A DNA stretch of 64,000 nucleotides from a virus: the UHGV virus genome UHGV-0038496; one strand, 5' to 3'. A program made the position numbers and the translations under genes. Numbering within the stretch: position 1 is the first letter of the stretch; every line of letters begins with the position of its first letter. The notes beneath the pieces are model-generated. The model had not been told where the DNA came from and searched no databases. It saw nothing but the letters and a program-made list of their open reading frames with translations. Below are positions 658 to 40,311 of the stretch, one piece after another.

Positions 658-678
658 GGAGGGGAAGTATTCCCCTCC
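658..678 (-). other. GC-rich stem-loop without a U-tract, just upstream of an RBS
   Basis: 7-bp stem GGAGGGG/CCCCTCC with 7-nt loop between polymerase exon 2 stop and the RBS of the 387..638 gene. Confidence 0.35.
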
Positions 679-695
679 AGTATGTTATTGATTTA

Positions 696-1049
696 TCAAT
701 GGCATTCGCCCCACGAGTATCCCACCAGACCTTCACCTGAGATTTGGAAAGGTGCCTTCATGATGCGAGCTGCTTGGTGGAAGCACTTAACAACCATTTC
801 ACCAACCTTGCAATGAATCAACTGGCATTTGCCGTTTTCGTTTATGATTGGATCATACACGGTTTTACCGTTGCTGTCAACTACTTCTTCACCATTTTCA
901 TCTTTACGGGCTTTTTTGTATTTGTTGCCAGTAAAGATACGACCTTTTGCTTCCTCCTCTGCTTTGAATTTTTCCAGTTCTTCCAGAGTATCAAACTCAT
1001 AAACGGTCTTAAACATGCCGTTATCTGGAATTTCATACTGATATTCATC
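696..1049 (-). CDS. DNA polymerase, family A, exon 2 (C-terminal 117 aa)
   Basis: Reading frame opens after an in-frame stop at about 1125 and ends ...VGYSWGECH, like family A polymerase C-termini (T7 ...NWAICH, E. coli Pol I ...WDQAH, from memory); joining it to exon 1 gives LLVH|DEYQYEI, restoring motif C (HDE). The ORF track calls it as a separate GTG-initiated 118-aa ORF. Confidence 0.65.
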   Translation of the reverse strand, partial: DEYQYEIPDNGMFKTVYEFDTLEELEKFKAEEEAKGRIFTGNKYKKARKDENGEEVVDSNGKTVYDPIINENGKCQLIHCKVGEMVVKCFHQAARIMKAPFQISGEGLVGYSWGECH

Positions 1050-1971
1050 CACATGTTCAAGGAGTTCGTTACGCTCCCCCGCACCTTTACGTGCAAAGCC
1101 ACAAGATTTCTCCTGTGGGTCGGACTATCTCACGTTCCTAGATCAGCCACAGGAACCCTCCCATTTCGACCGCACTTGCTGGCCTACTCTACTCGCTTCT
1201 TCACATCAACCTGTGTTGACGCTATGCTTTCGATAGTCTCTGAACGCGACTACCAGGTGTAGTTTTTAGAGATGTGTTTCCACTGCCTTCTTTGCTTTAT
1301 GGCTCTGACTGTTCCATAAGGATACCCAAGATCCCTAATCTCGCACTGTCTCATACCACTTTGCAACAGTTCACAAATCTCTATCACCTCAGCTTCTGTT
1401 AGCACAGCGTTAGCGTTATACTCGCCTACTGGCCTAACTCTGAGGTCATTATCATAAGCGTGTTTGATATTTTTGCCTTGAGTTGTCCACTCCAGATTCC
1501 AGTATGCATTGTTGTACTTATTCCCATCTTTATGGTTCACATAGGTGAATTTTTCAGGATCAGGATTCGGTACAAAGCATTCAGCAACCAAGCGGTGAAC
1601 ACCTTTTGTACACTGCTTCCCATCAATGAACATGATTACGCAAAGGTAACCTCTACCGTTATCAAAACTGAACATTGTTGTGTGATCACGTTTAGATAAA
1701 GGTATTGTTCCGTCATCAAACACAGTGTATCCATGATAATCAAATGATCTAGCCATTTTAACTACACCTCTTTAGTCTTCGCTGCGGGTTGGCATATTGA
1801 GTTTTACCACATTTTGGCATAAAAGTCAACTTAGCGTTCCCGTCAATTAAAGAGGTTATTCGACATAGATTACTCTATGAAGCCACAATGATGTTTATGG
1901 TAATAGATGATTCTTCTGACACCTAGGTCATACCAAGTTTTATTATCTATTTTCAAGGTCATCAGGTTGCG
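1050..1971 (-). mobile_element. group I intron (about 0.92 kb) in the DNA polymerase gene, carrying an HNH ORF
   Basis: Conserved core elements read on the minus strand in canonical order: P-like AATTGACGGGAACGC (rc of 1834-1848), Q-like AACCCGCAGC (rc of 1781-1790), R-like GTTCAGAGACTATCG (rc of 1231-1245), S-like GAGATAGTCCGAC (rc of 1119-1131). Upstream exon ends in U (CAT), intron ends in G (GTG). Boundaries are predicted, not folded. Confidence 0.7.
1250..1756 (-). CDS. intron-encoded HNH homing endonuclease
   Basis: 168 aa with HNH_3-type motif VHRLVAECF...VNHKDGNKYNN..NLEW.T...N.KHA and a C-terminal HTH-like tail; RBS GAGGTG upstream; lies between the Q and R elements of the intron. 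Confidence 0.8.
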   Translation of the reverse strand: MARSFDYHGYTVFDDGTIPLSKRDHTTMFSFDNGRGYLCVIMFIDGKQCTKGVHRLVAECFVPNPDPEKFTYVNHKDGNKYNNAYWNLEWTTQGKNIKHAYDNDLRVRPVGEYNANAVLTEAEVIEICELLQSGMRQCEIRDLGYPYGTVRAIKQRRQWKHISKNYTW

Positions 1972-4329
1972 ATGAACCAATAAGCCTACCAGATCACACA
2001 ATGAAGCACCACCATTCTGCTGATATGCATTCAGCAAGGAGTGTTTAGAGCGTGTCCAGATGGCATGACCATCGAAAGCATAGATAAATTTCTTACCTGT
2101 CGCCTCCCAGAATTTCTCAAGTGCCTCTTTACGACCTTTCAGGCCGAAGTTGGTATCCCAGAATGCGTCAATTACTTGCTGACCAACCTCTGGCACAACG
2201 TCAAGCATATCCGCTACTTTATCCTTTTGAGCACCATACATCACGCCATAAGTGATTGGCTTACCATCACCACGGGAAACCTCTCTGCCCACAACTTTAG
2301 AGTAGGCTTTGGCGTTCAAAGCATGTGCGTCCCCTTCGCTTATGATCCTGTAATACGCCCCGTTGTCGAAATCGTAAGCACCCCATGCACCTATCAGCTG
2401 TTCAAGGTTGGAACCATCAACACCCAACTGATACTTACCTGGAGCAGGTTTCCAGAGACTACGCATCTCTTTACCCAGCACAACCTTTGGTGAAGGTTTA
2501 GGCTGGTTGGCACATATTTTATGTTTCTGTCGTCCGGTAGCAGTCAAACCGGAGCTTTCTGCTGGTAAGCGGTGATCGATCTGCAATCTCGGATGATTCA
2601 ACAATCCAGTATCAACCTTATCCTCTTTGATTGGGTCGAGTACTGACCTACGGTTACGCAATGACAGCCAGAACACAATGTCTTTTGCCATCTCTCCTTG
2701 CAATCTTGCCAGATTAGGACACAAATGCCCGAAGCTATCTTTCAGCTGTGGGGATGTTGGTAGCCCTCTGGCTTTACGCCGGAACTTGGCGAACACCTCC
2801 TGTTCAACCCTGGGGGAGTTCTTACGACTCATGAACTTCGCTTCTGAAATTTTGAATCGCGCATCCCTGTTCAGTTCACGAATGATCAGGGTACGATACT
2901 CGGATGTTTCCAGTTCATCCATGTACTCCCTTACTTTAGCATCAATTTCAGCATCCGGCAACTGTTTTTTGTGGTAGTCACGGGTTAAATCTTTCGTTCT
3001 CCACATTGTTGGTTGCCAGCCTACAGAGATCAGATAACGCTTGATATCCATCTGGTTATTCATTCTCATGGGCACCATGCAATCAGGCATTTTCTTATCC
3101 TGCAAATCCTTAATTGCCTGCTGCATCAAATCATCCGGCAGAGGTTTAGGTGCTTCCTCTGACCGTGCTGCCCTCAGAAAGTCTGCCTGTTTTTCAGGAT
3201 CAGTGCAACCTCTTTCCTCACACCATTTAACACCTGTAGCACTAACACTCCCATCTTTGTTGAAAGCCCGTTTAGGTGCAGGTTTGAAGTCAAAAGCTGC
3301 TTCATTAACCGGATACCCAAGTTTGTTCTTCAACCAGCTGTAGCCGTGTGAAGAGATACTACCATCTGTATTGAACGGTTTCTGTGGGAACTTAGGCTTC
3401 TGGGCCTCTGAAATTTCTTTCAGTGGCAGCTGTGGTTCCACACGATCAGCGATCTCTTTCATCATGTCATCGCATTTCTGACGTAAAGCTATCGCCCCAT
3501 CAATATCAAAGTAAACACCTTGTCTTGCTTGTAAGCCCATCAAGAAGTGCTGGAGCATACCACGACGCAGAGCATACTTCCAAGTGATTTGTTTGAATCC
3601 GCTGGGTTTCTCTTTGTCTGGATCATACATAAAGTTTTGCATGTCAGATTTGCCGTAGAATGTCCCTTTGGACTCGGCGATCAGTTCGTCCCAGAGCAAT
3701 TCCTGAATGATAACGTCTTCCCATACACGGTCTACGTATTTCCAGAGTGGAAGATTGCGCCAGTCATCAATCTTAACTTTCTGGTTGCCAAGTGCATAGC
3801 CCCAAGCCATCAACCCATGTGGACCTACAGCTTGACTTTTCTTAGTTACCGGATTGAATACCGCCTCTGGACAACCTTTCGGTAACGGGCGATCAGGCCA
3901 CAATATACGACTCATCGGCAAAGTATCAAACAGGTTAACCCTGTGACCGTTGATGGTCCCCATGCAATCTTTATCTTCGAACAGGTCGAAATGAATGCCT
4001 GATAATTTTTCAAATAGGATAAAATCGTAGTCAAAACAGTTGTGACCCACTAAAGCGGTTGGCGACCAATCAGAATGTCCTGTCAGCCACTCTTCCATAT
4101 ACCCAAAGTCAGCAACCCGCACCTGACAGTTTTTGTAAACTGTTTGTTTATTGAGAGCGAATTGTTTCGCTGTTTCTACATCTTCCTCGGAGTAATGAGT
4201 CCTGTCGTTTAGCGGCAGGAATAGTATGAAGTTGTTTTTATGATGTTGTTTGTACAATGTGCAATGATAGTAGAGGTCTTTTTCATCAAGCAACCCACTA
4301 CTTTCTGCGTCAAAAGCCCACAATGCCAT
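1972..4329 (-). CDS. DNA polymerase, family A (T7-like), exon 1 with 3'-5' exonuclease domain
   Basis: N-terminal exo motifs FDAESSGL and HNCFDYD; polymerase motif A VDGSNLEQLIGAW (T7 VDASGLELR); motif B R..GK.ITYGVMYG; the track ORF runs 34 codons into the intron to a stop at 1870 with no HDE motif; RBS AAGGAG before the ATG at 4329. Confidence 0.85.
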
Positions 4330-4345
4330 ATGTTCTCCTTATAAG

Positions 4346-4371
4346 GGGGAGTTGGCTGTACTGCTCTCCCC
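4346..4371 (-). other. GC-rich stem-loop without a U-tract, between primase-helicase and polymerase
   Basis: Stem GGGGAG/CTCCCC with 14-nt loop, immediately upstream of the polymerase RBS. Confidence 0.3.
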
Positions 4372-4386
4372 ACTCTCAGTTAAGCA

Positions 4387-6459
4387 TCAGAACGGACAAT
4401 CTTCATCCTCAGGGAACTCCTGTTGGATTACGCTTTGATCGTCCCCTCCATCATCCTCTTCTTCTCCTTCCGCGTCAACAGCTTTTGGTTGAGGTTTCAC
4501 ATCGGCGGTAACTTTACCTTCTGGAGTTTCCACAACAACATGCTCTTCATTGTCAAACATATCTTGCGGCCTCCAGACAATATCTCCATCTTTGTTCAGG
4601 AAGAAACCTGTCTCCTTATCCCACACCCAGTCGCTGGCATCGGAGAATTTACCAGTCTCAGGGTTCATAATCAGCACATCAGCTATGCCTAAGGTTTTAG
4701 CTGGCCTGTTTTTCAGGCTAACTAAACGAACACGCCCACGGGACCTGTCAGGCATCTCTTCTGCTTCTACCCCTATGACAACCCAACTGAGTTGCTCCAT
4801 CGATCCACTACCACGAAGGTTTTCTTTACGGACAGGATACCAGAACGGTAAAGCCCTGCCTTCTTTATCCTTCGGTGGGATAATCTCTGTGCGACGCAAG
4901 TGGGCAATCGCCAGGATGAACACATTAAATTGCTTACAGAACGCTGCAAGCTGTGTCATTGCAAGGTCTAACTCTTTGCGTTCATCTTTTACATTCAAAC
5001 CAGAGATAACCATCGACAGGTGATCCAGCACGATGTAACGACAATGATACAAGCACACCATCTGTTTCAGTTTTGTGATCAGGTCGTTTACAGGTATTGA
5101 ACCGAAGTGCCGGAATACCCTGATTTTGTCAGCATCAACCCAGGCTTTGTGGATATCAAAGTGCTCCTGCTCGGTTAGATACTTGCTTGGATCTTCCATG
5201 AAATTCTTGATATCGTATCCCAGCTGGTTAGCATACAGTGAGTTGATGGCTTCTTCTGGGTCTTCTTCCAGGTGAATCATACACAACCTGTCTTCTGGGT
5301 CGTAGTCATCAGCTTTAGCCACCGTAGGATCCATCAGGTATTTAGCTATCTGGTGCTCAATTTTCTTGGCTACCGTAGTCTTACCACCACCAGAAGGACC
5401 AGTCAGCATAACCAGTGTGCCTTTATGCAAACCTTTCAGCATTTTCTGTAGTTTAGGGAACTCTGCCCCAATATCAACCCCGTTGGTGGATTTTTTACGT
5501 AAATCTTCGATTGAGAAATCACTCAGGCCTGCTACAGCATCTGGCACGTATTTGATCGGGTTTTTGAACATATCGTGAATTTGATCATACTTTTTAGCCT
5601 GGAACAAATCACGGATATCTTTGTAACCCTCTGGATCATTTACTTCACTCGGATACTGCACATGGAAAACGTTGTCAGCCATCAGGAAAGCTGCAACATT
5701 GTGAGTGGCTTCAACACCTTTGGTGACATGTTTTAGCTTCTCAACATCGTTTGCAGCGTCGTTGTCGAAGGCCAGGACAATCTCATCAAAGCTACGAATG
5801 AACTTCTCGTTGTTGGCAAAAGCATCTACGGCATTCGCGCAACCACAGTTAAGCCCTACCACGTTGATTGTGGGAAAACCTTTAGCAGAACCACCATCCT
5901 GCACCGCTTTAATACCGTCAAGAACGCTTTGTGCCCACGCTTTAGCTTTTTTATTTGATGATGGATCTGTAGCTATTTTCCTCACCATCATCCATTCAGT
6001 CTGCCACGCAGCAATAACGTCGCCTTCACCTTCGCAGACAATGATTTTACGATGGTCCGAGCCTTCCCCAACCATTTTCTGACCAAAGAACTGGCTGTTG
6101 GCCTTAACAACAGAAACTACGGTAAAATGCCCCTTCTGCTCTTTTGGGATAGTCCAGTCACGTTTCTTGTAACCAGTCAGGTTGCCATACTTATCGTAAT
6201 ACGGAAAGTATGTAGCAACAATATCCACCCCGTTCTCTTCTGAAACTGCGGAACGGATCCCGAAGTATTTAGCAGCTTCTAAACCTATGTTTTGCTGCGG
6301 AACTTTCAGTATCTTTGTAGAAGCCAGAACACTTTCGACTGTTTCTTGCTCTTTCTCGTCTCTGTAATCTCTTCTCACACTCCCTCCGCTTCTCCATTTT
6401 GTTGCTTGTGGGTTAGGTTGACCAAACTTGGCATAAGCTGAACTAAAGAAATTACCCAT
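4387..6459 (-). CDS. DNA primase-helicase (T7 gp4-like; TOPRIM plus DnaB-like helicase)
   Basis: TOPRIM-like IIVCEGEGDVIAAW, Walker A MLTGPSGGGKTT, helicase motifs (VLDHLSMV, AIAHLRR); 690 aa. Confidence 0.85.
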   Translation of the reverse strand: MGNFFSSAYAKFGQPNPQATKWRSGGSVRRDYRDEKEQETVESVLASTKILKVPQQNIGLEAAKYFGIRSAVSEENGVDIVATYFPYYDKYGNLTGYKKRDWTIPKEQKGHFTVVSVVKANSQFFGQKMVGEGSDHRKIIVCEGEGDVIAAWQTEWMMVRKIATDPSSNKKAKAWAQSVLDGIKAVQDGGSAKGFPTINVVGLNCGCANAVDAFANNEKFIRSFDEIVLAFDNDAANDVEKLKHVTKGVEATHNVAAFLMADNVFHVQYPSEVNDPEGYKDIRDLFQAKKYDQIHDMFKNPIKYVPDAVAGLSDFSIEDLRKKSTNGVDIGAEFPKLQKMLKGLHKGTLVMLTGPSGGGKTTVAKKIEHQIAKYLMDPTVAKADDYDPEDRLCMIHLEEDPEEAINSLYANQLGYDIKNFMEDPSKYLTEQEHFDIHKAWVDADKIRVFRHFGSIPVNDLITKLKQMVCLYHCRYIVLDHLSMVISGLNVKDERKELDLAMTQLAAFCKQFNVFILAIAHLRRTEIIPPKDKEGRALPFWYPVRKENLRGSGSMEQLSWVVIGVEAEEMPDRSRGRVRLVSLKNRPAKTLGIADVLIMNPETGKFSDASDWVWDKETGFFLNKDGDIVWRPQDMFDNEEHVVVETPEGKVTADVKPQPKAVDAEGEEEDDGGDDQSVIQQEFPEDEDCPF

Positions 6460-7186
6460 TGAGTTTGCTCCTTACAACGGGTTCGTTGGCTTCAAATACT
6501 GCTAATGCCCAACCACGAGGTGTCAGGCTCCTGATCATTTTGGTACGAGGAGATTTTCCTCCCAGCTTGGTATGTTGGAAAGAATACCCATTTACATCAC
6601 AAATCTGCGGCACAGGTCGTTTCTCAGGGACAACAAAACCATTTCCGAACCATCCACAGGTTAGCTTCGGATAAGCATCCCTGGGCTTAATCAGGTCAGG
6701 GAACCACGGGTTCTGATCGTCTTCCGGCAGATAGCCACCATACTCATACGGATGGAACTTGTAGTCCGGTTTACGCCACATATTGGACATAACACCAACA
6801 GGGTTCTCCACATGCCACGGACAATTATACATGTTACCCAGCGTTTCTGCAATACGTGCATCTTTTACAGCATTGACCTGAATCAACGGATCTTTTTGTA
6901 GTTTTTTCTTGAAATGCGCTGCCCCAGATACCGCTAAGTGGGTACATGGTGGAAACGACAGGATGAAATCTGGTGCAGGATACATCCCCAGGGTTTCTTG
7001 TGGAAACCACGGGTCAATCCAGTAGTCGATGTACTGAATGTTAGGGTGTTCCTCTACTACCTCTGCATAGCTCCCGTGATCTGCCCCTTCTGCGTTGAAG
7101 CAGAAGCACAGATACCCTGCATCAGCCCAGGGTTTGACAGCAATATCAGAGCCATTGAATAATGCCCACACTACGCCTTGCTTCAT
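6452..7186 (-). CDS. hypothetical protein (about 244 aa)
   Basis: Track ORF 6452..7258 trimmed to the ATG at 7184-7186 (MKQGVVWALFNG...) because it has an RBS GGAGGG 9 nt upstream and the longer reading frame runs through a terminator hairpin. Confidence 0.5.
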   Translation of the reverse strand: MKQGVVWALFNGSDIAVKPWADAGYLCFCFNAEGADHGSYAEVVEEHPNIQYIDYWIDPWFPQETLGMYPAPDFILSFPPCTHLAVSGAAHFKKKLQKDPLIQVNAVKDARIAETLGNMYNCPWHVENPVGVMSNMWRKPDYKFHPYEYGGYLPEDDQNPWFPDLIKPRDAYPKLTCGWFGNGFVVPEKRPVPQICDVNGYSFQHTKLGGKSPRTKMIRSLTPRGWALAVFEANEPVVRSKLNG

Positions 7187-7212
7187 ACTATTTAGCCCTC
7201 CAAACACAAAAA

Positions 7213-7232
7213 CCCCGCCCTTTCGGGCAGGG
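7213..7232 (-). terminator. rho-independent terminator
   Basis: GC hairpin CCCCGCCC-TTTC-GGGCAGGG followed on the minus strand by TTTTTGTGTTTG; downstream of the 7239..7712 gene. Confidence 0.6.
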
Positions 7233-7238
7233 CTGTTA

Positions 7239-7712
7239 TTACTCGACGCGAATCCCAATTGTATACTCTGTTGAGACTAATGTCAAGTCTATGTTTAAAA
7301 TTTTATTCAGTTGTTCGAAATGTTCCTCTGTCAGATAAATCTTTTCAGAGGCTGTGCCAGTTAAATGATACTTCAGGAACCCAGGGTAATCGCTTATAGC
7401 GTAGCGTAGGCACCGCATTTCAGTTGGGTTGATGTAACCGTCATGCATCACCATCTGAGCTACGCCCAGTCCAGCATAGAAGCTCTGAGACTCTTTCAAG
7501 TAGTGCTCCCATACTGTTGTTTCTTTTTTAATCAATCCGAAGAACTTCTCTTCGACATAACGTTTGTTTTTAAGATATTTCAGAATCCTGTTACCAATCA
7601 CTGCAAGATCACGGAATTTAAGAGCAGCTTTTTGTAGCGTTTCCCGTGGTACTTCAATCAGGTCTTGTGCAGCAGGACCAATCTTCCAGAGATAGTCGCT
7701 TTCGTAAATCAT
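7239..7712 (-). CDS. hypothetical protein
   Basis: 157-aa ORF; overlaps neighbours in operon-like fashion. Confidence 0.5.
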   Translation of the reverse strand: MIYESDYLWKIGPAAQDLIEVPRETLQKAALKFRDLAVIGNRILKYLKNKRYVEEKFFGLIKKETTVWEHYLKESQSFYAGLGVAQMVMHDGYINPTEMRCLRYAISDYPGFLKYHLTGTASEKIYLTEEHFEQLNKILNIDLTLVSTEYTIGIRVE

Positions 7713-7990
7713 TTTTTAGCTACCCTCCTGCTTTGGTTTTTGATCCAGTCTGCTTCCAGTGTTTCCAGAACAAAATCGATATCAATATCTTCAAGTACTG
7801 GTGTCGGCGTAGGAACAATCTTAGCTTCATCTACGTTTTTAACCAGCGTGTAAATGATATTGCCCTGTGGTGTTATACACTGTCCTGTGATAACATAGCC
7901 TTCGTCAACGTATTTGCTTAAATCCTTTTCCATAGAATTAAGGCAGCTATCAATACACGGAACCCCGATAATCTTTACATCAGCAGCCAT
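7709..7990 (-). CDS. hypothetical protein
   Basis: 93-aa ORF; start/stop overlap with flanking genes. Confidence 0.45.
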   Translation of the reverse strand: MAADVKIIGVPCIDSCLNSMEKDLSKYVDEGYVITGQCITPQGNIIYTLVKNVDEAKIVPTPTPVLEDIDIDFVLETLEADWIKNQSRRVAKK

Positions 7991-8286
7991 CAGAAGCCTC
8001 CTGTTTCATCAGCAAACGAAGATAGCACATCCGCAGAGTGTAAGTGTTCTTTCAGAGCTTTGTGGGCTGCAAAGTTGATTTTATTACGTAAACCTTTAGG
8101 CAAAAGGAAGAACGGTAATTTGTTACCATCTTTGTAAACTTCAATCTCTACGATTTCGCGGAAGCCGTAGTAATCAATGTCTGATGCACGTTCATTGTAA
8201 TCTGGCAATTGGACTCGGCACAGGCATTCACATACATACTCTTCATGTGTGAAATCCAGATAGAAACTGTGTAATTTGTTAGCCAT
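7990..8286 (-). CDS. hypothetical protein (about 98 aa)
   Basis: Track ORF starts with GTG at 8313; likely start is ATG at 8284-8286 (MANKLHSF...) preceded by AAGGAGA. Confidence 0.45.
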   Translation of the reverse strand: MANKLHSFYLDFTHEEYVCECLCRVQLPDYNERASDIDYYGFREIVEIEVYKDGNKLPFFLLPKGLRNKINFAAHKALKEHLHSADVLSSFADETGGF

Positions 8287-8304
8287 GACTGTCTCCTTAG
8301 TAGT

Positions 8305-8322
8305 GGGGAGCACCTGCTCCCC
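8305..8322 (-). other. GC-rich stem-loop without a U-tract, upstream of an RBS
   Basis: GGGGAGC-ACCT-GCTCCCC hairpin between the 8353..8706 gene and the RBS of the 7990..8286 gene. Confidence 0.35.
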
Positions 8323-8352
8323 TTCATGCTTCTGATATTACCAAAGTTGGGA

Positions 8353-8706
8353 TTATATGTCAAGTTCTTCTACAACACGAAGAATCAATTCAAACGCAGT
8401 GCCGTCTGCGTCAACGCAATCCAAACCTTCGATAATGAAAGTTACAATGTCTTCCACACCCGTGTCTTCCCCGAAGTTAACAGTCAGGAATTGACCTACT
8501 TCGAAAACAGTATCAGAGAACACAAAAGCATGGTAAACATCATAATCTTCATTGTCTGCCACCAGCAGCAAATCGTGATTCTTATGACGTTGTGTGAAGT
8601 CGTGCACTGTTACATCTTGTGGTTCAGATGTATCAACATCAGCGACGTAATTAACAATATTAGCCAGCAGACTCATTATCGGCCTCCTTTTTAACCTTAG
8701 CTTCAA
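8353..8706 (-). CDS. hypothetical protein
   Basis: 117-aa acidic ORF; overlaps the helicase gene end. Confidence 0.45.
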   Translation of the reverse strand: MKLRLKRRPIMSLLANIVNYVADVDTSEPQDVTVHDFTQRHKNHDLLLVADNEDYDVYHAFVFSDTVFEVGQFLTVNFGEDTGVEDIVTFIIEGLDCVDADGTAFELILRVVEELDI

Positions 8707-10048
8707 GATCTTTTCTTACTTTTTCATCCAACCCAGGGAATGTATCGGCGTAAAACTGTATCACCCTTGGGTCTACGATAATATCACTTTCTCTAACAGG
8801 ACGCAAGAGGGTAATGCTCTGAATTTTCTTAGCACGGCTAAGAGCAACATAAGTCATTCCTGCCGCGAATGCACCTCTCTTACCTAAATCAAGGTTGTAA
8901 GCCTCCAGAGTAAGCCCCTGGCATTTATGGATTGTATAGGCATACCCAGATTTCAAAGGTAACTGTTCGAATGACCCTGTGGTTATTCTTTCAATCACTC
9001 TTTTCTTTTTACGGGTAGCCCAGTCAAATTTGATAGACGGTTTGTATTCGTAACTCTCCCATAACTTAGTAGGTACAGTAACAAGTGTACCATCATCCAG
9101 CTCAATGTCAACCTTATCTGTGTGAAATTCTAAAATTGTGCCACGGGATCCATTCACATAATGTGGAACTTTGTGTTTAGGATCAAGGTCGTTAGCAACA
9201 ATCATAACTTTCATGCCTACTTTCAGATACATAGTATCTTCCACTGGCAAGTGATTAGCAGGAAATCTGCCTTTCAAGACCCCCTTGTACATCTTTTCTT
9301 TGCCATTTACACGATCATAGAACTCCCTGTTTATCTCTTCCACCCTTTTGTTGGTTGAGCACAAAATAATGGCATCAGAAGGTTGACCACCATGATAGCA
9401 ACGGGAGTTTAGTTCCTTCACCACATCTTTGGTTCTGCGACCTTCTCGGACACAGTTTAACATTGTGGCAAACCTAATTGACTCCTGCCTGAATTGCTCC
9501 ACAAGGGCAACACATTTCAGGTTGAGGTCTTTCCAGGATTGTGTGTAGAAGCAAAGGTCAGTGTCCCAATATTTGTAGTAATCCTCTCTTTCTTGCATAG
9601 AGATAACAGGCTCTGCCTGGTAGAAATCCCCAAACATGATCACCTGTAAACCTCCGAAAGGTTCATTAGATTTACGAAGGTGTTGGAGTTTCTTATCCAT
9701 CTCCACAAACTTATCCGCACGAACCATAGACACTTCATCAATGACTAAGGTTCGTAGTGCTTTACTTTTGAGAGGTTTGGCTGTTTTAGAACGAATCTCT
9801 GTGAAATCTTCTGGGACAGTCACACCTGCTGACAGGTCAAAAGCCCTGTGTGCGGTAACACCGCCAGCGTTAAGTGCAGCTACCCCTGTTGGGGCAACAA
9901 CCATACAAGATTCGCCGAGTAAAGATTGTATGTCTTGCAAAAGATGAGTCTTACCAGTGCCACCTGGCCCACTGATATAGACATTTTCACCACATAACAC
10001 AGCGGCGAGAGCGGCATCCGTGCCAATCTCATAGGTTTGTTCTTCCAC
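8660..10048 (-). CDS. ATP-dependent DNA helicase, Dda/RecD/PIF1-like (SF1B)
   Basis: Walker A GPGGTGKTHLL, APTGVAA, and C-terminal AYTIHKCQGLT...ALSRA motifs typical of RecD/Dda helicases. Confidence 0.8.
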   Translation of the reverse strand: MEEQTYEIGTDAALAAVLCGENVYISGPGGTGKTHLLQDIQSLLGESCMVVAPTGVAALNAGGVTAHRAFDLSAGVTVPEDFTEIRSKTAKPLKSKALRTLVIDEVSMVRADKFVEMDKKLQHLRKSNEPFGGLQVIMFGDFYQAEPVISMQEREDYYKYWDTDLCFYTQSWKDLNLKCVALVEQFRQESIRFATMLNCVREGRRTKDVVKELNSRCYHGGQPSDAIILCSTNKRVEEINREFYDRVNGKEKMYKGVLKGRFPANHLPVEDTMYLKVGMKVMIVANDLDPKHKVPHYVNGSRGTILEFHTDKVDIELDDGTLVTVPTKLWESYEYKPSIKFDWATRKKKRVIERITTGSFEQLPLKSGYAYTIHKCQGLTLEAYNLDLGKRGAFAAGMTYVALSRAKKIQSITLLRPVRESDIIVDPRVIQFYADTFPGLDEKVRKDLEAKVKKEADNESAG

Positions 10049-10057
10049 TCTTCCTCC

Positions 10058-11341
10058 TTAGAAGAAGATCTCTTCTATTACGTTGCCATCACGGTCAACT
10101 ACATACTCATTCGGCATATCTTCCGTGCGTTTAACAGGAGCCGTGAGTATTTCGAAGCGGCAGCAACGGCATTTAGCAAAGTCGTAGTCATACGGCACAC
10201 TAACCACATCTGCTGGGTCAACAGCCACTTTAGTTAACACACCGTATCCTTTGGCATACTCAGCGCTTGCACAGTGCAGGCCGTGAGAGCAAGCCACCTT
10301 TGGGTTATCCTCTACAAAGTTACGAGGCATTGAGATAAAGCAGCCTTCGTATTGTGGGACTTTACCAGAATGGTAGTCTACACAGCTTCCGTCAGCCTTC
10401 TGAGTTACACCACGGAAACATTCTATACGACCATCAGGTAGAATGTCAATATCATTTGCCTGCATAAAGTTGTAGAGCATGTCTACAGACTTAGCAGACG
10501 GGTTACGAAGCAGACGGACCAGGAACTTGATGTAGCGTTCATCCAGAGTGCCTTCTGCCGCATCCTTTTCAATCCGTTTGGCGATAGTGGAAGTCAGGTG
10601 CACACCATAGTAGAAGAGTTCACCATCACGCATTACGAGGTGATTTTCCAGGTACACCACTTCAATACTTTCCTCTTCCTCTTTCTCCGCGTCCTTAATG
10701 AGCTGAATTGCACCATCGAAGTCGTTAGCACCAACTCTTGCAAACACTTCTTTGTAGAGTTCTTCGTTGTCCTCATCAGCTGTTACAGTGTAAGTCTCTT
10801 CACGAGTGATAATCTGGATCATGCTGCCGAAGATAACCACGACAGGTTCACCATCTGGCACTTTTGGCACCAGGTCATCAGCATTGTAAATCGCTTCATC
10901 ACTGGATGGTTCAACCTCTAAAGGTGAGGCATCACCGTAGTAAGTCGCTGCGTGTTCTGCTGGGGTGTAAACAAGGTTTTTAGGACTTGCATTTTCCCAG
11001 TGCAATACCCCTACTACATTGCCAGGGTATTTTACCACCCAACGCGGAACAGTCGCATAAGGGCCACGGTCGATGAGTGTGGAACCTTCCATGCAGTTTT
11101 CTTTGAACTTACGAGCCTCTCCACGAGAAGCAAACTCTGCATAGTAGTATTCCACTTCCAAAAATTCATTATCAATGTCGCAATTTTTCGGGGAATGTAC
11201 GTCTATCCACCATTCGCCATCGAGAAGATACGGTTTACCCACAGGAAAGCCACGGCTTTCATATTTTGCTTTTGCTACACGAGCATCGTTACGAGTTTTG
11301 TAAGTACGCACGTATACAGCTACGGTTGAACAGTCTGACAT
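10058..11341 (-). CDS. rIIB-like protein (tentative)
   Basis: 427-aa ORF immediately downstream of, and start/stop-overlapping with, the rIIA-like gene; assignment is by position only. Confidence 0.35.
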   Translation of the reverse strand: MSDCSTVAVYVRTYKTRNDARVAKAKYESRGFPVGKPYLLDGEWWIDVHSPKNCDIDNEFLEVEYYYAEFASRGEARKFKENCMEGSTLIDRGPYATVPRWVVKYPGNVVGVLHWENASPKNLVYTPAEHAATYYGDASPLEVEPSSDEAIYNADDLVPKVPDGEPVVVIFGSMIQIITREETYTVTADEDNEELYKEVFARVGANDFDGAIQLIKDAEKEEEESIEVVYLENHLVMRDGELFYYGVHLTSTIAKRIEKDAAEGTLDERYIKFLVRLLRNPSAKSVDMLYNFMQANDIDILPDGRIECFRGVTQKADGSCVDYHSGKVPQYEGCFISMPRNFVEDNPKVACSHGLHCASAEYAKGYGVLTKVAVDPADVVSVPYDYDFAKCRCCRFEILTAPVKRTEDMPNEYVVDRDGNVIEEIFF

Positions 11342-13353
11342 TATTCAGTCTCCTTCTTAGCTTTCATTAATTCAATATATTCAACAACTTCTGGTTTATC
11401 CCAGTAATCCCCCTGGATGCGTTTCAGCAACGGGTAGCGTTTGTATACACCATCCATGTAGCGACGAGCACATTTCACATGAAGGTTCACAAGATGATCT
11501 GCTCTGTCAGCCAGATCCCTATACTTCCACGAGTAGCATCCCATCCACATACGGACCTTATACTTGTTTTCTTTTACTTCTGGGTCAATGCACATTTTCA
11601 CACCGAGTTTTCCCAGTTGCATTTTATATTTTGTGTAACCTGTTGTGTTTGCAGCTTTCATCAAAAGCCAGTTCCAGGCATCCTGTTCCAGAACAGGTTT
11701 TGCATCAACCTCTGTGATAATTCTACAATCTTCTGTCACCCATGTCAAGCGACTTTCAGCAACCATGTAAACATCTTCATCCTGTGGGATACCAAAGGCT
11801 TCACGGAAGACCACCGGATCCTGTTGGTAGATGTTATTGTTTTCACCCAACCAACTGCGGCCTCTCTGGATATCACCATCATACGGGATGCAGTATTTTA
11901 TATCTTTAAAATCCTGCTTACTGATGCGTTCGCGGCAGAACCAACCGTGTTCATCCATCTTTTTGACATAATAGCCCGGTTGATACGTGCTCGCCTGGCA
12001 TTGGTCTTTTGGTGGCTTAGGTAGCTCAGACAGTAGATACAGCACGTCACTGTAGAACGGATCGTTCACATATTTAGCCAGCTCCTCTGACAGGTACGGG
12101 TCTTCCACATAGTAGACGTTGCGGCCTGTCTCATTAGCCAGATAGTTACATTTAATCCGGTTGAACTTACCGTTTGCGTCATTCAGTACCAGCTTACGGC
12201 CTGCTGAAAACTCTGAAGGGCCGTACATATCTCGTTTCAGAGAGTTAGCACCAATCCGAGTACCACCTACGAACACAGGCAACTCATTGATGACTGGGAC
12301 AGTACGACCTTGCATAATGGCTTTCCATTTAGCAGTCATGAACTTCCAGCCCACCAGACGCGAGAAGAAACCACCAGACTCTTTAATGATACGACGGGCT
12401 TCAACCCCAGAAGTGGCCTTATTCAGCAGCACTTCAATCTCTTCACCACGTTTACTGATACCTTCATCCACAAAGGCTTTCAGCTGTTCGAGGAACCCAC
12501 CATCATCATCACCCTCAATCGTCCATTCACGGCCAAGGTTGATATCGCAATCGCCAATCGGAATCTCTACCACCAGGCGCGGATAATCTACCAGAGATTC
12601 AAGATACTCTGAACGATAAGGTTGGTGACCCATCACAACACGGCTTTCCATAGAGCAAGTATTGCCGTGGTAGATGTACAGAGTCCATCCACCTTTTTTG
12701 TATGTGTAGTCAACGTTGCTTCTAAATTGCTCCAGCATCCGTGTGGTGATCGGATCCGACACCTCGAACGGAAACTTAGCATAGTTCAGGCATGAAGCTA
12801 TCGCATGGCGATACGCAGACACATCCCTTTTGCTCACAGGGAACCGGATTGTGATGCCGTTATGCTGCGTAGAAGGCTCGCTACGCGTCTTAGTGACTTT
12901 CGGTATACCTTTGTCCATAAAGACAAGATATTCGCTTCTTGTGCCGTTATAGACGCTTATAACGTTAAAGGCTTCTACCTTGCTCAGAGGTGCTTTTGAG
13001 CCAATGCCTTTGGCACCTACCAGCTCATTACTCTGGCGCTTAGTGGAGTCGCCCAACGTCATAAAAATTGTGCGTACAGTCTCTTCAGACATGCCGAGGC
13101 CTTCATCCTGCACAGAGAAGTAAGGCTCAAGGTCGGTTGGTGTATGGATCTTGATAGGCACATCTTTACGACCTGCTTCAACATGAGCATCCACAGCATT
13201 GAAGATAGGCTCACGACAGGAAGCGAGTAAAGGATCTTTGTAAATACCTTTGATAATCAGGCCAAACGTCTCCGCATTCAGCGCGATTGTCCCTGTGGTA
13301 ACTTCACTCTTACCGAGAATGTTTGCTTCTTTATGGTCACTTTTAATAATCAT
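11341..13353 (-). CDS. rIIA-like protein with N-terminal GHKL-type ATPase fold
   Basis: N-terminal MIIKSD..., then GHKL boxes NAVDAH, DEGLGM, GAKGIGSKA; 670 aa, similar in size to T4 rIIA (about 725 aa, from memory). Confidence 0.55.
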   Translation of the reverse strand: MIIKSDHKEANILGKSEVTTGTIALNAETFGLIIKGIYKDPLLASCREPIFNAVDAHVEAGRKDVPIKIHTPTDLEPYFSVQDEGLGMSEETVRTIFMTLGDSTKRQSNELVGAKGIGSKAPLSKVEAFNVISVYNGTRSEYLVFMDKGIPKVTKTRSEPSTQHNGITIRFPVSKRDVSAYRHAIASCLNYAKFPFEVSDPITTRMLEQFRSNVDYTYKKGGWTLYIYHGNTCSMESRVVMGHQPYRSEYLESLVDYPRLVVEIPIGDCDINLGREWTIEGDDDGGFLEQLKAFVDEGISKRGEEIEVLLNKATSGVEARRIIKESGGFFSRLVGWKFMTAKWKAIMQGRTVPVINELPVFVGGTRIGANSLKRDMYGPSEFSAGRKLVLNDANGKFNRIKCNYLANETGRNVYYVEDPYLSEELAKYVNDPFYSDVLYLLSELPKPPKDQCQASTYQPGYYVKKMDEHGWFCRERISKQDFKDIKYCIPYDGDIQRGRSWLGENNNIYQQDPVVFREAFGIPQDEDVYMVAESRLTWVTEDCRIITEVDAKPVLEQDAWNWLLMKAANTTGYTKYKMQLGKLGVKMCIDPEVKENKYKVRMWMGCYSWKYRDLADRADHLVNLHVKCARRYMDGVYKRYPLLKRIQGDYWDKPEVVEYIELMKAKKETE

Positions 13354-13375
13354 TGGTCAGGCCCCATAGCAGTTA

Positions 13376-13394
13376 GCCCCTCGGTAAGAGGGGC
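13376..13394 (-). other. GC-rich stem-loop without a U-tract
   Basis: GCCCCTC-GGTAA-GAGGGGC hairpin between the 13407..13775 gene and the rIIA-like start. Confidence 0.3.
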
Positions 13395-13406
13395 AAGTGT
13401 TGTGGA

Positions 13407-13775
13407 TTAATTGTCGTGGAGGAGTTCATCTTCCACTTCCCTGTAAATCTCCACGCATTCATCTTGATAGAAGAATGTCTTATCCTTAAGTTGCAGACCG
13501 AAGAGTTCAGCACTATCTTTGTGGCAAGCTCTCACCATCTCTGCAATGTCATAACGTAGCAGATCGTCATTTTCAAAGAAACCTGCTTTATCCTTAACGT
13601 AGATGAAGAAATACTCACTATCAGAACAAGTTAACATCAACTCATCCCAGATTTCATCACCTTCACGATCCTGAACTGTGATAACCCGTGTTGATCTGCA
13701 ATGATACTCTTCCTCTGGATGGTCTGTCAATACCACCAGGAAATTACCACGGCGTTTCTTACCTAATGCAGCCAT
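13407..13775 (-). CDS. hypothetical protein
   Basis: 122-aa ORF. Confidence 0.45.
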   Translation of the reverse strand: MAALGKKRRGNFLVVLTDHPEEEYHCRSTRVITVQDREGDEIWDELMLTCSDSEYFFIYVKDKAGFFENDDLLRYDIAEMVRACHKDSAELFGLQLKDKTFFYQDECVEIYREVEDELLHDN

Positions 13776-13785
13776 TGTGCACTCC

Positions 13786-14979
13786 TTAAGCCTTAGCTAA
13801 CAAGTCACGGAACTCTTCCCCAAACTGTTTGACGATAGTCATCAGGTTAGGGTATGCTTTAATCAGTTTAGCCATGATTTTCTCACGACCATGCTCTTTG
13901 TTCACCAGAATAGCATTGCCAAGTGCATTCGGGCTAATCATCGCTTTGAACACAGAGAATACGAAGTCTCTGTTGTCATTCTGGAAGTTGCTCCATAAAT
14001 ATTCCAGGAAGTTCGCAGCACTGCTAACCACTTCGTCATCATCGACTTCAATGTTAGCCATCATGTTGCGTAAGCCAATACAACCTTCTGAACCCAGAAT
14101 CCAGATGAGGTCTGGAGATTTCTGGCCTTTGAACTCTTTGACTGCCCCAGCAAAGATATCCCCAATCTCTGGCAGATTGCGTTTCTTCGTGTGGTAAGTC
14201 ATAATCTCCAGCATCATCGTGTGACCAATCGTCCCCTGTAACAGGACACGGGCTTCAGCTTCTGAAACCAGACGGCGATCAAGGTCCCACAGAATATCCG
14301 AAGCAGTTACCCATGAACGAGGTGTGGCGAATGCAGGACAGTTGCAGTCTGCCATTGCTTCGTAGTTCTCAATAGATGACGGCTGGCGTTTCAAATAACC
14401 GATCACAGAAGAATGCACACCTTGTGGGAATGCATAGTCTTCCAGGAAGACGTTGGCATCTGGGATAACTTCTACAATAGTTAAACGGTTTGCCAGAGGT
14501 GCTTCCAATACAGACAGCACTGCACCATCACCAGAACGGTTACCTGCACCTACAAACACCGCACCTTTCGGGAATTTGTAGCAACCGCATTTGTGGTCCA
14601 ACATGATCTGCATGGCTACTTTCTGGAGAAAATTATCTGCATGGTTCATTTCATCCAGCAGAATAATACCTTCCCAGTCTGGATCAGTAGGCCAGAAGCT
14701 CGGTGTGGCAAACACAGTGCGAGTTGTGCCATCTTCCTCTGTTACCGGAACAGGCAGGCCAGACAGGTCTGTTGGGTCTTTATCTGACAAACGAACATCG
14801 ATCAAGTTATCTTCCCGTTCTCCAAATAGTTTATCGGCAGTTTGCTTGATGACCTGGCTCTTACCAACACCAGGAGAACCCAGTATAAATAAAGATTTGC
14901 CGTGACGCTGGGCAAACTTGATCATAGCAGGCAACTCACGAACTGTAATCTGCCCACTTTCGAAAATGTTTCTTGACAT
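13786..14979 (-). CDS. AAA+ ATPase (MoxR/AAA_5-like)
   Basis: Walker A GSPGVGKSQ, Walker B ILLDEMNHA; 397 aa. Confidence 0.75.
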   Translation of the reverse strand: MSRNIFESGQITVRELPAMIKFAQRHGKSLFILGSPGVGKSQVIKQTADKLFGEREDNLIDVRLSDKDPTDLSGLPVPVTEEDGTTRTVFATPSFWPTDPDWEGIILLDEMNHADNFLQKVAMQIMLDHKCGCYKFPKGAVFVGAGNRSGDGAVLSVLEAPLANRLTIVEVIPDANVFLEDYAFPQGVHSSVIGYLKRQPSSIENYEAMADCNCPAFATPRSWVTASDILWDLDRRLVSEAEARVLLQGTIGHTMMLEIMTYHTKKRNLPEIGDIFAGAVKEFKGQKSPDLIWILGSEGCIGLRNMMANIEVDDDEVVSSAANFLEYLWSNFQNDNRDFVFSVFKAMISPNALGNAILVNKEHGREKIMAKLIKAYPNLMTIVKQFGEEFRDLLAKA

Positions 14980-15230
14980 TAGTAAAGCTCCTCTCTTGCT
15001 TCGTAAGTATGTTCAAAGTTTTCAAGTTCTGTCATTACATCGAAGACAGGGATGCCATACGCTATGTCGAAATTATAAGCCATTCTACCAGCTACAACTT
15101 CTTGTGGGTCAATTGCCCGATTAGCGTAGAAGTATGCAGGGGTGCACCTACGTGATCCACCCCTCATGCCGCTATGATAATACTTTTCGTAGTCCCTGTC
15201 AAAGTCTAATTCTCTATATTGGTTTGACAT
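14979..15230 (-). CDS. hypothetical protein
   Basis: 83-aa ORF; ATGA-type overlap with the ATPase gene. Confidence 0.4.
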   Translation of the reverse strand: MSNQYRELDFDRDYEKYYHSGMRGGSRRCTPAYFYANRAIDPQEVVAGRMAYNFDIAYGIPVFDVMTELENFEHTYEAREELY

Positions 15231-15245
15231 AGATCAACCTCCGTG

Positions 15246-15620
15246 TTAGAAAGTAGTTTTCACCCACAGATTGTGCCTGTCTGCCCAGTCATAAAGCTCA
15301 GACATGGCATAATCAAAATCTTCCATAGGTGTGATCAAAATATCAATTTCCTCATTGATATAAGCGTGGACCTCTTTACTAAACTCTTCCGGTGGGAGAA
15401 TTGCCAGGAAGTGCTCAACCACATCGTCAAGATCCCAGTCATATTCTGGGCAATCTGCGTTTAATTGCCGTGGGTAGAGTTCAGCTATTTTTCGGGCTAT
15501 CCGTTTGGCGAACTTGTGGACATTATTGCCAGTCCACTCCTGGATTGTACCATCTTCAAGTGGGAGTCCTTCCCACCAGTCAGACAGATCCAGCGTCTTA
15601 TTCCACCGTGCCATAGTCAT
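15246..15620 (-). CDS. hypothetical protein
   Basis: 124-aa ORF in an overlapping small-gene array. Confidence 0.45.
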   Translation of the reverse strand: MTMARWNKTLDLSDWWEGLPLEDGTIQEWTGNNVHKFAKRIARKIAELYPRQLNADCPEYDWDLDDVVEHFLAILPPEEFSKEVHAYINEEIDILITPMEDFDYAMSELYDWADRHNLWVKTTF

Positions 15621-15883
15621 TCTCCCACATCTACCGTTGTAGAGATGACCAGATTTTTAGGGCCAATATCCAGCTCTGCCAGAGGTTTAGAATCACCACC
15701 TGCATACAAAGCCTGGCACACTGTAGGCATCATATCTTCCGGGATATACTCTAACAGGTTAAGTGAGATGTAACCTTTATCTTCTTTCACGAAGTGGATG
15801 ATCATCAGATCGCCAGCTTCAAAGAGGCTACCATCAACTTTAACGTCTTCTGCATTCAGATAAACATTTACGATTGTTTTCAT
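15617..15883 (-). CDS. hypothetical protein
   Basis: 88-aa ORF with 4-nt overlaps on both sides. Confidence 0.45.
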   Translation of the reverse strand: MKTIVNVYLNAEDVKVDGSLFEAGDLMIIHFVKEDKGYISLNLLEYIPEDMMPTVCQALYAGGDSKPLAELDIGPKNLVISTTVDVGE

Positions 15884-17429: not shown

Positions 17430-17463
17430 TCGCCCTAAATACACACAAGCAAGGACATTTGCT

Positions 17464-20717: not shown

Positions 20718-20718
20718 T

Positions 20719-24282: not shown

Positions 24283-24301
24283 GGGGGCCATCAAGGCCCC
24301 C
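24283..24301. terminator. bidirectional rho-independent terminator at the convergence of plus-strand early genes and the minus-strand structural cluster
   Basis: Hairpin GGGGGCC-ATCAA-GGCCCCC flanked by an A-run on the plus strand (a U-run for the minus-strand transcript) and by AAATTGTTT on the plus side. Confidence 0.7.
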
Positions 24302-39729: not shown

Positions 39730-39745
39730 TTACAGATACAAAAAA

Positions 39746-39761
39746 CCCCGCCGAAGCGGGG
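39746..39761 (-). terminator. rho-independent terminator
   Basis: CCCCGC-CGAA-GCGGGG hairpin followed on the minus strand by TTTTTTGTATCTG; downstream of the 39787..40233 gene. Confidence 0.7.
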
Positions 39762-39786
39762 TAATGTATCAGGAGAAACTTGAATT

Positions 39787-40233
39787 TTATTCTTCCTTGT
39801 TACGCAGTTTTTCAACCACCTGTGTAAGCTCTGCAAGGCTTTTCTCAAGTTCTTGCAAACTTGACACTTGTTGTTCCAGCTCAGCAATCCTGTTCTGTGC
39901 TTCAATCAGTTTAGCTTCCTGCTCTGCAATCAGTAATTGTTCTGTGCTTGGCTCTACAAGCTCTGGTTCTTCCATTTCCAGAGATAGAGGCATAATTGCA
40001 GCTTCCATTGCTTCATCAAAATAATCCACCAAAGCCCATTCTTCCAGCTCAAAATCGAAAATTGCCATCTGGCCTTCAGGAATTACATCCGGCGGGGCAA
40101 TTGTTGTGCACAGTGCAGGCAATCCGGTGTGAGGTGGAATTTGGATATCCACTTCGTTCACGAAGGCAAATGTGTCATTTGTCACATTGTAAACGTGAAC
40201 AACTTGCATTTCATCTGACATTTCAAAAGCCAT
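39787..40233 (-). CDS. putative tail fibre assembly protein
   Basis: Start moved to ATG at 40231-40233 (MAFEMSDEMQ...) with RBS GAGGG; N-terminal domain then C-terminal coiled coil; sits directly after the 1635-aa fibre gene. Confidence 0.4.
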   Translation of the reverse strand: MAFEMSDEMQVVHVYNVTNDTFAFVNEVDIQIPPHTGLPALCTTIAPPDVIPEGQMAIFDFELEEWALVDYFDEAMEAAIMPLSLEMEEPELVEPSTEQLLIAEQEAKLIEAQNRIAELEQQVSSLQELEKSLAELTQVVEKLRNKEE

Positions 40234-40280
40234 AGTTTTAACCCTCATGATTGAAGCGTTTGTTAATCTCTGCAACAGCA

Positions 40281-40311
40281 GAGAGGATTAACGTTTTCAT
40301 GCAATCCTCTC
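40281..40311 (-). other. intergenic stem-loop (9-bp stem, 13-nt loop)
   Basis: GAGAGGATT...AATCCTCTC inverted repeat immediately after the fibre stop codon; no U-tract on the coding strand. Confidence 0.35.

Follow-up and report, generated by a model that had tools for sequence, protein, structure and literature searches.

Hairpins without U-tracts between the genes of an rV5-related phage: sense-strand mRNA elements under selection for pairing, and a conserved motif at the DNA polymerase start

We analysed a stretch of 64,000 nucleotides (nt) of the virus genome UHGV-0038496, hereafter the window, in which a reading of the sequence alone had pointed to six GC-rich stem-loops lying ahead of ribosome-binding sites (RBS). 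These hairpins, together with two more that we add here (S1 to S8, listed below), are not the product of chance and are under selection for pairing in the sense mRNA. We hold with moderate confidence that they are sense-strand mRNA elements of three functional types, namely an intercistronic type A (S1, S4, S5, S7, S8 and probably S6), a promoter-proximal type B (S3) and a type C (S2) at the start of the DNA polymerase gene; for most of them, a putative role in transcript stabilisation or insulation is the most plausible one. The phage of the window is a distant relative of rV5 (Vequintavirinae). Its megablast matches to rV5-like (Vequintavirus) phages are limited to the DNA polymerase region, at about 78% nucleotide identity, and a more sensitive search gives about 66% identity in places over the rest. 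The minus strand carries nearly all genes, apart from a plus-strand block at about 17.4-24.2 kb. The genes at the six sites first described are on the minus strand and the relevant RNA is therefore the reverse complement; the sequence-only reading did not mention that its elements have to be read in this orientation. The eight hairpins are as follows.

678-658, minus strand: S1, GGAGGGGAA-uac-UUCCCCUCC, -15.1 kcal/mol
4371-4346, minus strand: S2, imperfect bipartite stem GGGGAG-a-GC-aguaca-GC-caa-CUCCCC
8322-8305, minus strand: S3, GGGGAGC-aggu-GCUCCCC, -13.7 kcal/mol
13394-13376, minus strand: S4, GCCCCUC-uuacc-GAGGGGC, -13.5 kcal/mol
30188-30167, minus strand: S5, AGCCUCUCC-ugcg-GGAGAGGCU, -17.8 kcal/mol
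40312-40280, minus strand: S6, 11-bp stem with an 11-nt loop, -12.9 kcal/mol
45219-45202, minus strand: S7, GGAGGGC-uucg-GCCCUCC, additional to the six
18519-18536, plus strand: S8, AGGGGGC-uuuu-GCCCCCU, additional to the six

The six inverted repeats first described are all present, and on the minus strand each is located after one stop codon and before the start that comes next. All eight hairpins have 6-11 base pairs (bp), mostly G-C, and folding energies of -12.9 to -17.8 kcal/mol, and the stem sequence is different at every site, with no repeat-family consensus. Their placement immediately upstream of an RBS is correct for S1 to S5, where the Shine-Dalgarno sequence (SD) follows 6-10 nt after the stem, but not for S6, which lies about 30 nt from its SD. 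S1 starts 17 nt after the stop (698-696) of a DNA polymerase C-terminal fragment, and its stem ends 6 nt before the SD AGGAGA (651-646) of an 83-amino-acid (aa) open reading frame (ORF) with its start at 638. S3 is 7 nt ahead of the SD AGGAGA (8297-8292) of a gene starting at 8286. S4 is flanked by a 122-aa ORF (stop 13407) and rIIA (start 13353), and S5 by a tail-fibre gene and the gene for a 1943-aa immunoglobulin (Ig)-like protein, the sequence after S5 being UUACUAUAU-GGAGAA (SD 30157-30152) and then an AUG at 30147. The next start after S6 is probably the ATG at 40233, with SD GAGGG. S7 begins 3 nt after a stop (45223) and leads into UAAC-AGGAGA (45197-45192) and an AUG at 45187, and S8 is followed by UU-GGAGGA and a GTG at 18550. 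A single motif common to all the hairpins was considered and rejected, as the covariance model of S2 (see below) matches none of the others, whose loops are unconserved.

A systematic scan of the window for perfect-stem hairpins yielded the two additional ones, S7 and S8. On the sense strand, 21 hairpins of the window have a free energy of -12 kcal/mol or lower, as compared to 9.0 +/- 3.4 in dinucleotide shuffles. Thirteen of these 21 begin no more than 45 nt past a stop codon, a zone that represents 5.1% of the window. The sequence-only reading had proposed folding energies better than those of shuffled controls as part of its test; the z-scores of the intergenic regions are modest, from -1.5 to -4.7, the lowest being those of S5 (-4.67) and S6 (-4.13), and they are weak for S1 to S4. 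Shuffling whole intergenic regions is a weak test in this case because the G-run and C-run composition survives the shuffling, and positional enrichment and conservation are more informative.

For conservation, we extracted the syntenic intergenic regions of relatives with protein anchors (related loci are denoted by L numbers). Four IMG/VR contigs, all from one metagenome, belong to the same lineage as the window (93-99% protein identity), two further contigs, at 62-71%, are rV5-like, and another, at 42-54%, is more distant. In the close relatives, with flanking proteins 90-99% identical, the hairpins are retained while their sequences drift, and the lack of a U-tract is itself kept. In four close relatives, S1 is a perfect stem of 7-9 bp maintained via paired changes (A-U to G-C, and a paired deletion), its arms reading GGAGGGGAA/UUCCCCUCC, GGAGGGGG/CCCCCUCC, GGAGGGGA/UCCCCUCC, GGAGGGA/UCCCUCC and GGAGGGG/CCCCUCC, with pairing always perfect; the syntenic junction of rV5-like phages has no GC-rich counterpart. 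The apical pair of S3 is C-G, U·G or U-A in the close relatives and G-C in rV5-like phages, and in S4 the loop and the top of the stem are variable. G·U pairs appear in S3 (L002, L005 and L006), at the base of S4 (L002), in S7 in place of an A-U pair (L008), in S6 (L009) and in S2 (L054, L056 and L065). On the opposite strand, such pairs would turn into A·C mismatches, which indicates that the selected object is the sense RNA. The spacing between hairpin and SD is also steady, at 6 nt for S1, 7-10 nt for S3 and 2-3 nt for S8, as compared to 17-26, 17-30 and 4-22 nt, respectively, between stop codon and hairpin.

The hairpins had been treated as one class, a view that our data do not sustain: S2 is a specific single-copy motif at the polymerase start and S3 is a promoter-proximal hairpin with a predicted 5'-terminal position. 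S2 lies between a primase/helicase gene and the DNA polymerase gene, the product of which matches DNA_pol_A and PHROG DNA polymerase I (family-A-like). The parts of the S2 module are as follows.

4371-4366 / 4351-4346, minus strand: lower stem GGGGAG/CUCCCC
4364-4363 / 4356-4355, minus strand: upper stem GC/GC
4362-4357, minus strand: hexaloop AGUACA
4354-4352, minus strand: 3' bulge CAA
4345-4340, minus strand: spacer CUUAUA
4339-4334, minus strand: SD AGGAGA
4329-4327, minus strand: AUG of the DNA polymerase gene (1870-4329)

In its general form, with a hexaloop on a bipartite stem, 1-3 nt bulged on the 3' side and 5-8 nt of spacer to the polymerase SD, this architecture recurs in the window lineage, in Vequintavirus (Murica), in Mydovirus (KB57), in Seunavirus-type phages (LNA4, with which SalR7, L055 and L064 were placed by sequence similarity), in Raoultella phage Ro1 (L057) and in several other IMG/VR lineages. 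S2 is thus an element of the DNA polymerase start in at least five related lineages, and the stem-to-SD spacing of 5-8 nt is seen in 18 distinct sequences from the window lineage and several related ones. The lower stems differ (GGGGAG/CUCCCC, GGGAGG/CCUCCC, GGUGGGC/GCCCACC, GGACGGGC/GCCCGUUCC, GCUGC/GCAGC), the upper stems are swapped (GAC/GUC, GUC/GAC, GGC/GCC, GGU/ACC, CCGU/ACGG), and the loop conforms to NNUAYA (AGUACA, GGUACA, GAUACA, GUUACA, AGUAUA), with its U, A and A positions invariant. The motif tracks the polymerase SD and not the upstream gene: in KB57 an additional ORF lies between it and the primase/helicase gene, and in L048 it has remained beside its SD despite an inserted HNH gene (see below).

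A covariance model, R1, built from 14 sequences, matches positions 4326-4375 of the window at 46.7 bits. Over 711 kb of loci, it gives one match per locus, at the polymerase start, with the exception of a weak second match in L032; in two complete related genomes (LNA4 and A135, 291 kb together, also used for the counts below) it gives one significant match each, the next best having E >= 0.24. In the model-fitted alignment, 86% of the cells pair, as compared to 26-52% with slid partners, 8 of the 10 pairs show double changes, and the covariation score is 0.56, versus 0.21 in shuffles (0 of 500). RNAalifold recovered the same fold from a MAFFT alignment that was not fitted to the model, with compensatory changes at 7 of 8 pairs. 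A comparison with Rfam yielded no gathering-level match in the whole window, and only noise at E <= 10 around S2 (window and KB57). The second match in L032 (1501-1549, plus strand; 22 bits, E 0.015; loop GGUACA) lies far from the polymerase gene and may be a chance match or a second site.

In several lineages, the polymerase gene that follows the motif begins with a weak start codon, AUU (KB57 and Ro1), AUA (LNA4) or UUG, placed 5-6 nt after a strong AGGAGGA (L035 1195-1203 for KB57, L057, L037 for LNA4, L056, L063 and L065). These ORFs have no upstream in-frame AUG, GUG or UUG, and no alternative in-frame start keeps the conserved DxE exonuclease motif; the polymerase coding sequence deposited in GenBank for KB57, which begins 66 nt downstream, would lose it.

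S2 is a conserved and hitherto undescribed RNA motif that belongs to a known functional kind, and it would probably serve as an operator for translation of the DNA polymerase gene. The hairpin would most likely bind a protein, possibly the polymerase itself, and this would block binding of the 30S subunit and limit polymerase synthesis. More tentatively, we suggest that S2 may be the first member of a cis-regulatory RNA family not described so far, a putative autogenous translational operator of family-A-type phage DNA polymerases that would be conserved in the window lineage, in three or more named genera of Vequintavirinae and in several IMG/VR lineages of no assigned type, would be independent of the T4 gp43 operator, and would go with weak AUU, AUA or UUG starts in some lineages. 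The closest functional analogue of S2 is this gp43 operator, in which a hairpin with a conserved -UAAC- loop is joined by sequence that overlaps the RBS (PMC3014915). Like S2, the gene 43 operator of T4 and RB69 is a hairpin directly 5' of the SD of a phage DNA polymerase gene, has a conserved loop sequence on a variable stem, and is found in one copy per genome. However, the polymerase is of family B in T4 and RB69 and family-A-like here, and the T4/RB69 operator has a 5-bp stem and an 8-nt loop, whereas S2 has a bipartite stem, a 6-nt NNUAYA loop and a 3' bulge. As the window polymerase is family-A-like, an operator function of S2 would be convergent, an analogy and not a homology; S2 would at most work like the gene 43 operator, and is not a member of its family.

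A loop-loop or pseudoknot interaction of the S2 loop was considered and rejected: the GUAC in the loop is self-complementary, the GAUACA and GUUACA variants are not, and, by inspection, there is no downstream segment complementary to the loop in the window, Murica or KB57 sequences. Two arrangements of the polymerase locus were also observed. In L048 (IMGVR_UViG_3300045988_059428), an HNH homing-endonuclease ORF (942-1500) fits exactly between the polymerase gene, which uses a different RBS, and an S2-type element with its SD; the translation start of the polymerase thus appears to have been captured by the endonuclease. In the window itself, the DNA polymerase is split (696-4329, minus strand) into an N-terminal 819-aa ORF (1870-4329), an HNH endonuclease ORF (1250-1756) and a C-terminal fragment (696 to about 1230), and the rV5-like records annotated as 'DNA polymerase (x2) | HNH endonuclease' have the same layout.

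S3 is preceded by a sigma-70-type promoter (8363-8335, minus strand) composed of TTGACA (8363-8358), 17 nt and TAATAT (8340-8335), with an extended -10 TG and 10 of the 12 consensus positions, the -10 ending 12 nt before the hairpin. The promoter is found at the same spacing in the relatives, as TTGACA-17-TAAAGT with TG in the window-like contigs and as TTGACC/T-17-TAAGAT in the rV5-like phages (three lineages). With a predicted start about 5 nt 5' of it, S3 would be the 5'-terminal hairpin of a promoter-initiated transcript, followed by the SD and start codon. Stem-loops at the 5' terminus protect mRNA from 5'-end-dependent decay, and S3 may thus do the same job as the hairpins inside the operons, but at a primary 5' end. 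It would resemble ompA-type leaders in having a hairpin about 5 nt from the predicted 5' end and then an RBS; it differs from them in that its start site is predicted only and in that S3 is also internal to transcripts reading through from upstream.

The remark that no U-run follows the hairpins was borne out and extends to the two additional ones. On the sense strand, S1 to S8 all fail the scan criterion for a terminator-like call (at least 5 T in the 8 nt after the stem), having 1-4 T in the next 8 nt, and, as had been anticipated, they are not canonical intrinsic terminators. An intrinsic terminator carries a U-tract of about 7-9 nt directly 3' of its stem. The true terminators of the window (n=8) do have U-tracts, with 5-7 T in 8 nt, and are listed here.

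7211-7234, sense strand: U-tract terminator
22567-22584, plus strand (sense): U-tract terminator
24283-24301, sense strand: U-tract terminator
39745-39762, sense strand: U-tract terminator
52953-52973, sense strand: U-tract terminator
56166-56197, sense strand: U-tract terminator
57009-57026, sense strand: U-tract terminator
58643-58662, sense strand: U-tract terminator

These terminators are transcription-unit boundaries, and each of those separating co-directional genes (52953, 57009, 58643 and 39745) is then followed by a promoter of the TTGACA..TATAAT type. By contrast, the U-less hairpins run straight into an SD, and there is no promoter before the next gene except at S3: ahead of the others we found none that is convincing, the matches at S7 (9/12) and at S6 and S8 (8/12) being at chance level. 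The U-less post-stop hairpins are a general habit of the subfamily, as those with no more than 3 T in the next 8 nt account for 22 of the 43 strong post-stop hairpins of LNA4 and 17 of the 35 of A135.

As the U-tract is missing, we infer that RNA polymerase mostly reads through the type A hairpins. Their GC stem of 7-11 bp (-13 to -18 kcal/mol) could then block 3'-to-5' exonucleases for the upstream cistron and provide the downstream cistron, beside its SD, with a 5' edge that is structured and insulated, and segments of one long transcript would get different lifetimes. Some low-level termination is likely at S5 and S8, with their three proximal U. U-less hairpins between cistrons are already known as elements, and those of the window are ordinary ones; the REP (repetitive extragenic palindromic) sequence between malE and malF is such an intercistronic stabiliser hairpin. 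S1 and S4 to S8 share with REP and with the hairpins of selective RNA processing and stabilisation (SRPS) the properties of stable stem-loops without a U-tract, lying between cistrons of one operon on the sense RNA and selected for pairing. However, REP has a repeated consensus, whereas the window stems differ from site to site, and, unlike REP and SRPS hairpins, those of the window lie 2-10 nt from the next SD. Intergenic stem-loops setting operon stoichiometry are a precedent, and such hairpins are the proposed means of unequal expression within an operon (PMC8219983, PMC4423207). With intrinsic terminators, the window hairpins have in common a GC-rich stem of 7-11 bp and a loop of 3-5 nt, often cUUCGg, just past a stop codon, and orthologous junctions of relatives carry real terminators; the differences are the lack of a sense-strand U-tract and the RBS that follows directly, without a promoter.

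Several points weigh against the view of the hairpins set out above. A number of orthologues have U-rich tails and are annotated as terminators, S5 and S8 keep their three proximal U, and partial termination could be the main function of such hairpins rather than a side effect. The steady hairpin-to-SD spacing may come only from genome compaction and a short spacer, and the individual fold z-scores of the intergenic regions of S1 to S4 are weak, as seen above. Our literature search found no published transcript map for Vequintavirinae. As to S2, the CR8-like (Certrevirus) and ICP1-like phages and some IMG/VR relatives are without the motif, and we know of no RNA operator for a family-A-like polymerase.

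The main rival, which concerns S4 to S8, is that the hairpins are leaky intrinsic terminators (attenuators), in which a hairpin and a short or degenerate U-stretch step transcription down along the operon, stability being secondary. In Murica, the hairpins of the S4 to S8 junctions have U-richer tails (AUUUUCUAUUU, UUUUCUUAUCU, UUUUUGUUUG, UUUCAGGAG and UUCUGGAG, in that order) and are annotated as terminators: the counterpart of S4 is CCCCGC-uucg-GCGGGG-AUUUUCUAUUU, that of S5 is AACCGCUCC-ugac-GGGGCGGUU-UUCUUAUCU, that of S7 is GGGGGC-uguuu-GCCCCC-UUUCAGGAG, and that of S8, in its rV5-like form, is AGGGGCC-aau-GGCCCCU-UCUGGAG. The S7 junction of L013 and the S8 junction of the more distant contig L032 have canonical U-tract terminators, and S5 and S8 of the window have UUU directly after the stem (UUUACUAUAU at S5). 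Internal terminators that set operon stoichiometry are moreover documented (PMC9045158). On the other hand, the 8 nt after S1, S3, S4 and S7 contain 1-3 T, none of them contiguous with the stem, and these hairpins fail the scan; the tail of S3 in rV5-like phages is ACAAAAAC; and the absence of the U-tract is conserved in the close relatives. Where it was put to the test, termination driven by a hairpin required a U-tract (PMC3993855). The same requirement holds for E. coli. S5 in L013 (GCCUCCC-uacg-GGGAGGC-UAUACUCG) has no U-tract either. As the tails of orthologous hairpins range from none to a full U-tract, conservation lies in the hairpin and variation in the U-tail, and for the same reason a leaky-terminator origin or role has to be reckoned with, although we regard it as rather unlikely to be the better explanation.

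Clearly less probable is that the hairpins are translational switches, with a purine arm imitating an SD and a pyrimidine arm imitating an anti-SD, in which the upstream ribosome would melt the 5' arm and the freed CCUCC-like arm would pair with the real SD and alter downstream initiation by coupling or anti-coupling. Such a mechanism would fit the tight and conserved spacing to the SD, and when the 5' arm is removed the 3' arm does pair with the SD at S1, S2, S3 and S7 (-3.6 to -7.8 kcal/mol); the alternative helices are weak, however, and the arms of S4 and S5 are in the opposite order. At S1 to S3 and S8, the stop codon is moreover 15-30 nt from the hairpin, which a terminating ribosome would not open. 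GGAG or GAGG is found in a stem arm of 7 of the 8 U-less hairpins, as compared to 1 of 9 window terminators (Fisher test, p = 0.003, post hoc), but this association was lost in wider samples (p = 0.08-0.29 in related loci and p = 0.6 in the two complete genomes). Mimicry of SD and anti-SD sequences by the arms was therefore rejected, the signal of the window not being reproduced elsewhere, and we take it as lineage-specific composition or chance.

RNase III processing sites, cutting the polycistronic RNA as in T7, had been put forward among the candidate roles, and we give this very little credence. The hairpins are intercistronic, as such sites would be. However, T7-type sites have some 20 bp or more of nearly continuous double strand, often with an internal loop, the requirement of E. 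coli RNase III being roughly two turns of helix, and the stems of S1 to S5, S7 and S8, with only 6-11 bp, are far below this and gain no extended flanking helices in folds of the whole intergenic regions, making RNase III unlikely except possibly at S6. There, a composite helix (40273-40321, minus strand) is formed by an outer UAACAG/CUGUUG (40321-40316 / 40278-40273), the 11-bp stem (40312-40302 / 40290-40280) and, innermost, 3 bp capped by a tetraloop, adding up to about 20 bp (6+11+3) with an asymmetric internal loop, which is in the size range of RNase III substrates. S6 is kept in four close relatives without informative covariation, its outer helix has no covariation support, and the corresponding junction in Murica has an ordinary, canonical terminator instead.

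Finally, the idea that the hairpins terminate antisense transcription, and so shield operons from convergent transcripts, is scarcely credible: the scan does flag S1 (plus strand) and S8 (minus strand) as terminator-like on the antisense strand only, their antisense tails being T-rich because the sequence 5' of both is A-rich, and S6 is followed on the plus strand by UUUCUGUU, but the G·U variants are stable on the sense strand only, S2, S4, S5 and S7 have no T-rich antisense tail, and neither antisense genes nor strong antisense promoters are directed at the sites.

Other features of the window and its relatives touch on hairpins and promoters. The extra-stable cUUCGg tetraloop is found at 58643-58662, 57009-57026, 45202-45219 and 39745-39762 (minus strand) and at 22567-22584 (plus strand), and also in rV5-like orthologues. 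The terminator at 24283-24301 is bidirectional (GGGGGCC-N5-GGCCCCC, flanked by A- and T-runs) and lies between the convergent plus-strand block and the gene for the 1943-aa Ig-like protein. On the minus strand, an 11/12 promoter match (7286-7258) is located just upstream of the terminator hairpin 7234-7211, which a transcript initiated there would reach about 17 nt later, an unusual promoter-then-terminator order. Over positions 1-20000, sequences of the form TTGACA-N16-18-TAnnnT with an exact -35 number ten on the minus strand versus two on the plus strand, several of them inside ORFs (e.g., 13730-13701, 11748-11720, 10449-10420 and 880-852), which suggests an early/replication region with many internal sigma-70 promoters. 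A long intergenic region of 163 nt (54093-54255, minus strand) after gene 54256-54846 has a predicted structure including AGAGGC-aagc-GCCUCU. In the relatives, hairpin and RBS are combined into cassettes repeated between small ORFs, at 136-143 kb of the LNA4 record (36-43 kb of L088), at 79.7-81 kb of the A135 record (29.7-31 kb of L090) and at 17.6-18.3 kb of L032. One cassette, GCCGGGGA-nnn-UCCCCGGC-N8-AAAGGUAAA, is present in about six copies in LNA4, and a second, GAUGGCC..GGCCAUC-AAUAAAG, in A135 and in the distant contig; unlike the hairpins of the window, the LNA4 and A135 cassettes form sequence families.

These results bear on how such genomes are read. Annotation pipelines sometimes label U-less hairpins as terminators, and doing so here would mis-draw the operon map. 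With its promoter and predicted 5' hairpin, S3 is a small candidate for a natural leader that stabilises mRNA, and one open to direct testing. The element that merits further study is S2, given its strong covariation, its conserved loop and bulge nucleotides, its tie to the polymerase start and its absence from Rfam. Should S2 turn out to bind a repressor, the RNA and the protein would form a compact pair to study, and translational autoregulation of the replicative polymerase would have evolved twice, in unrelated families of phage polymerases.

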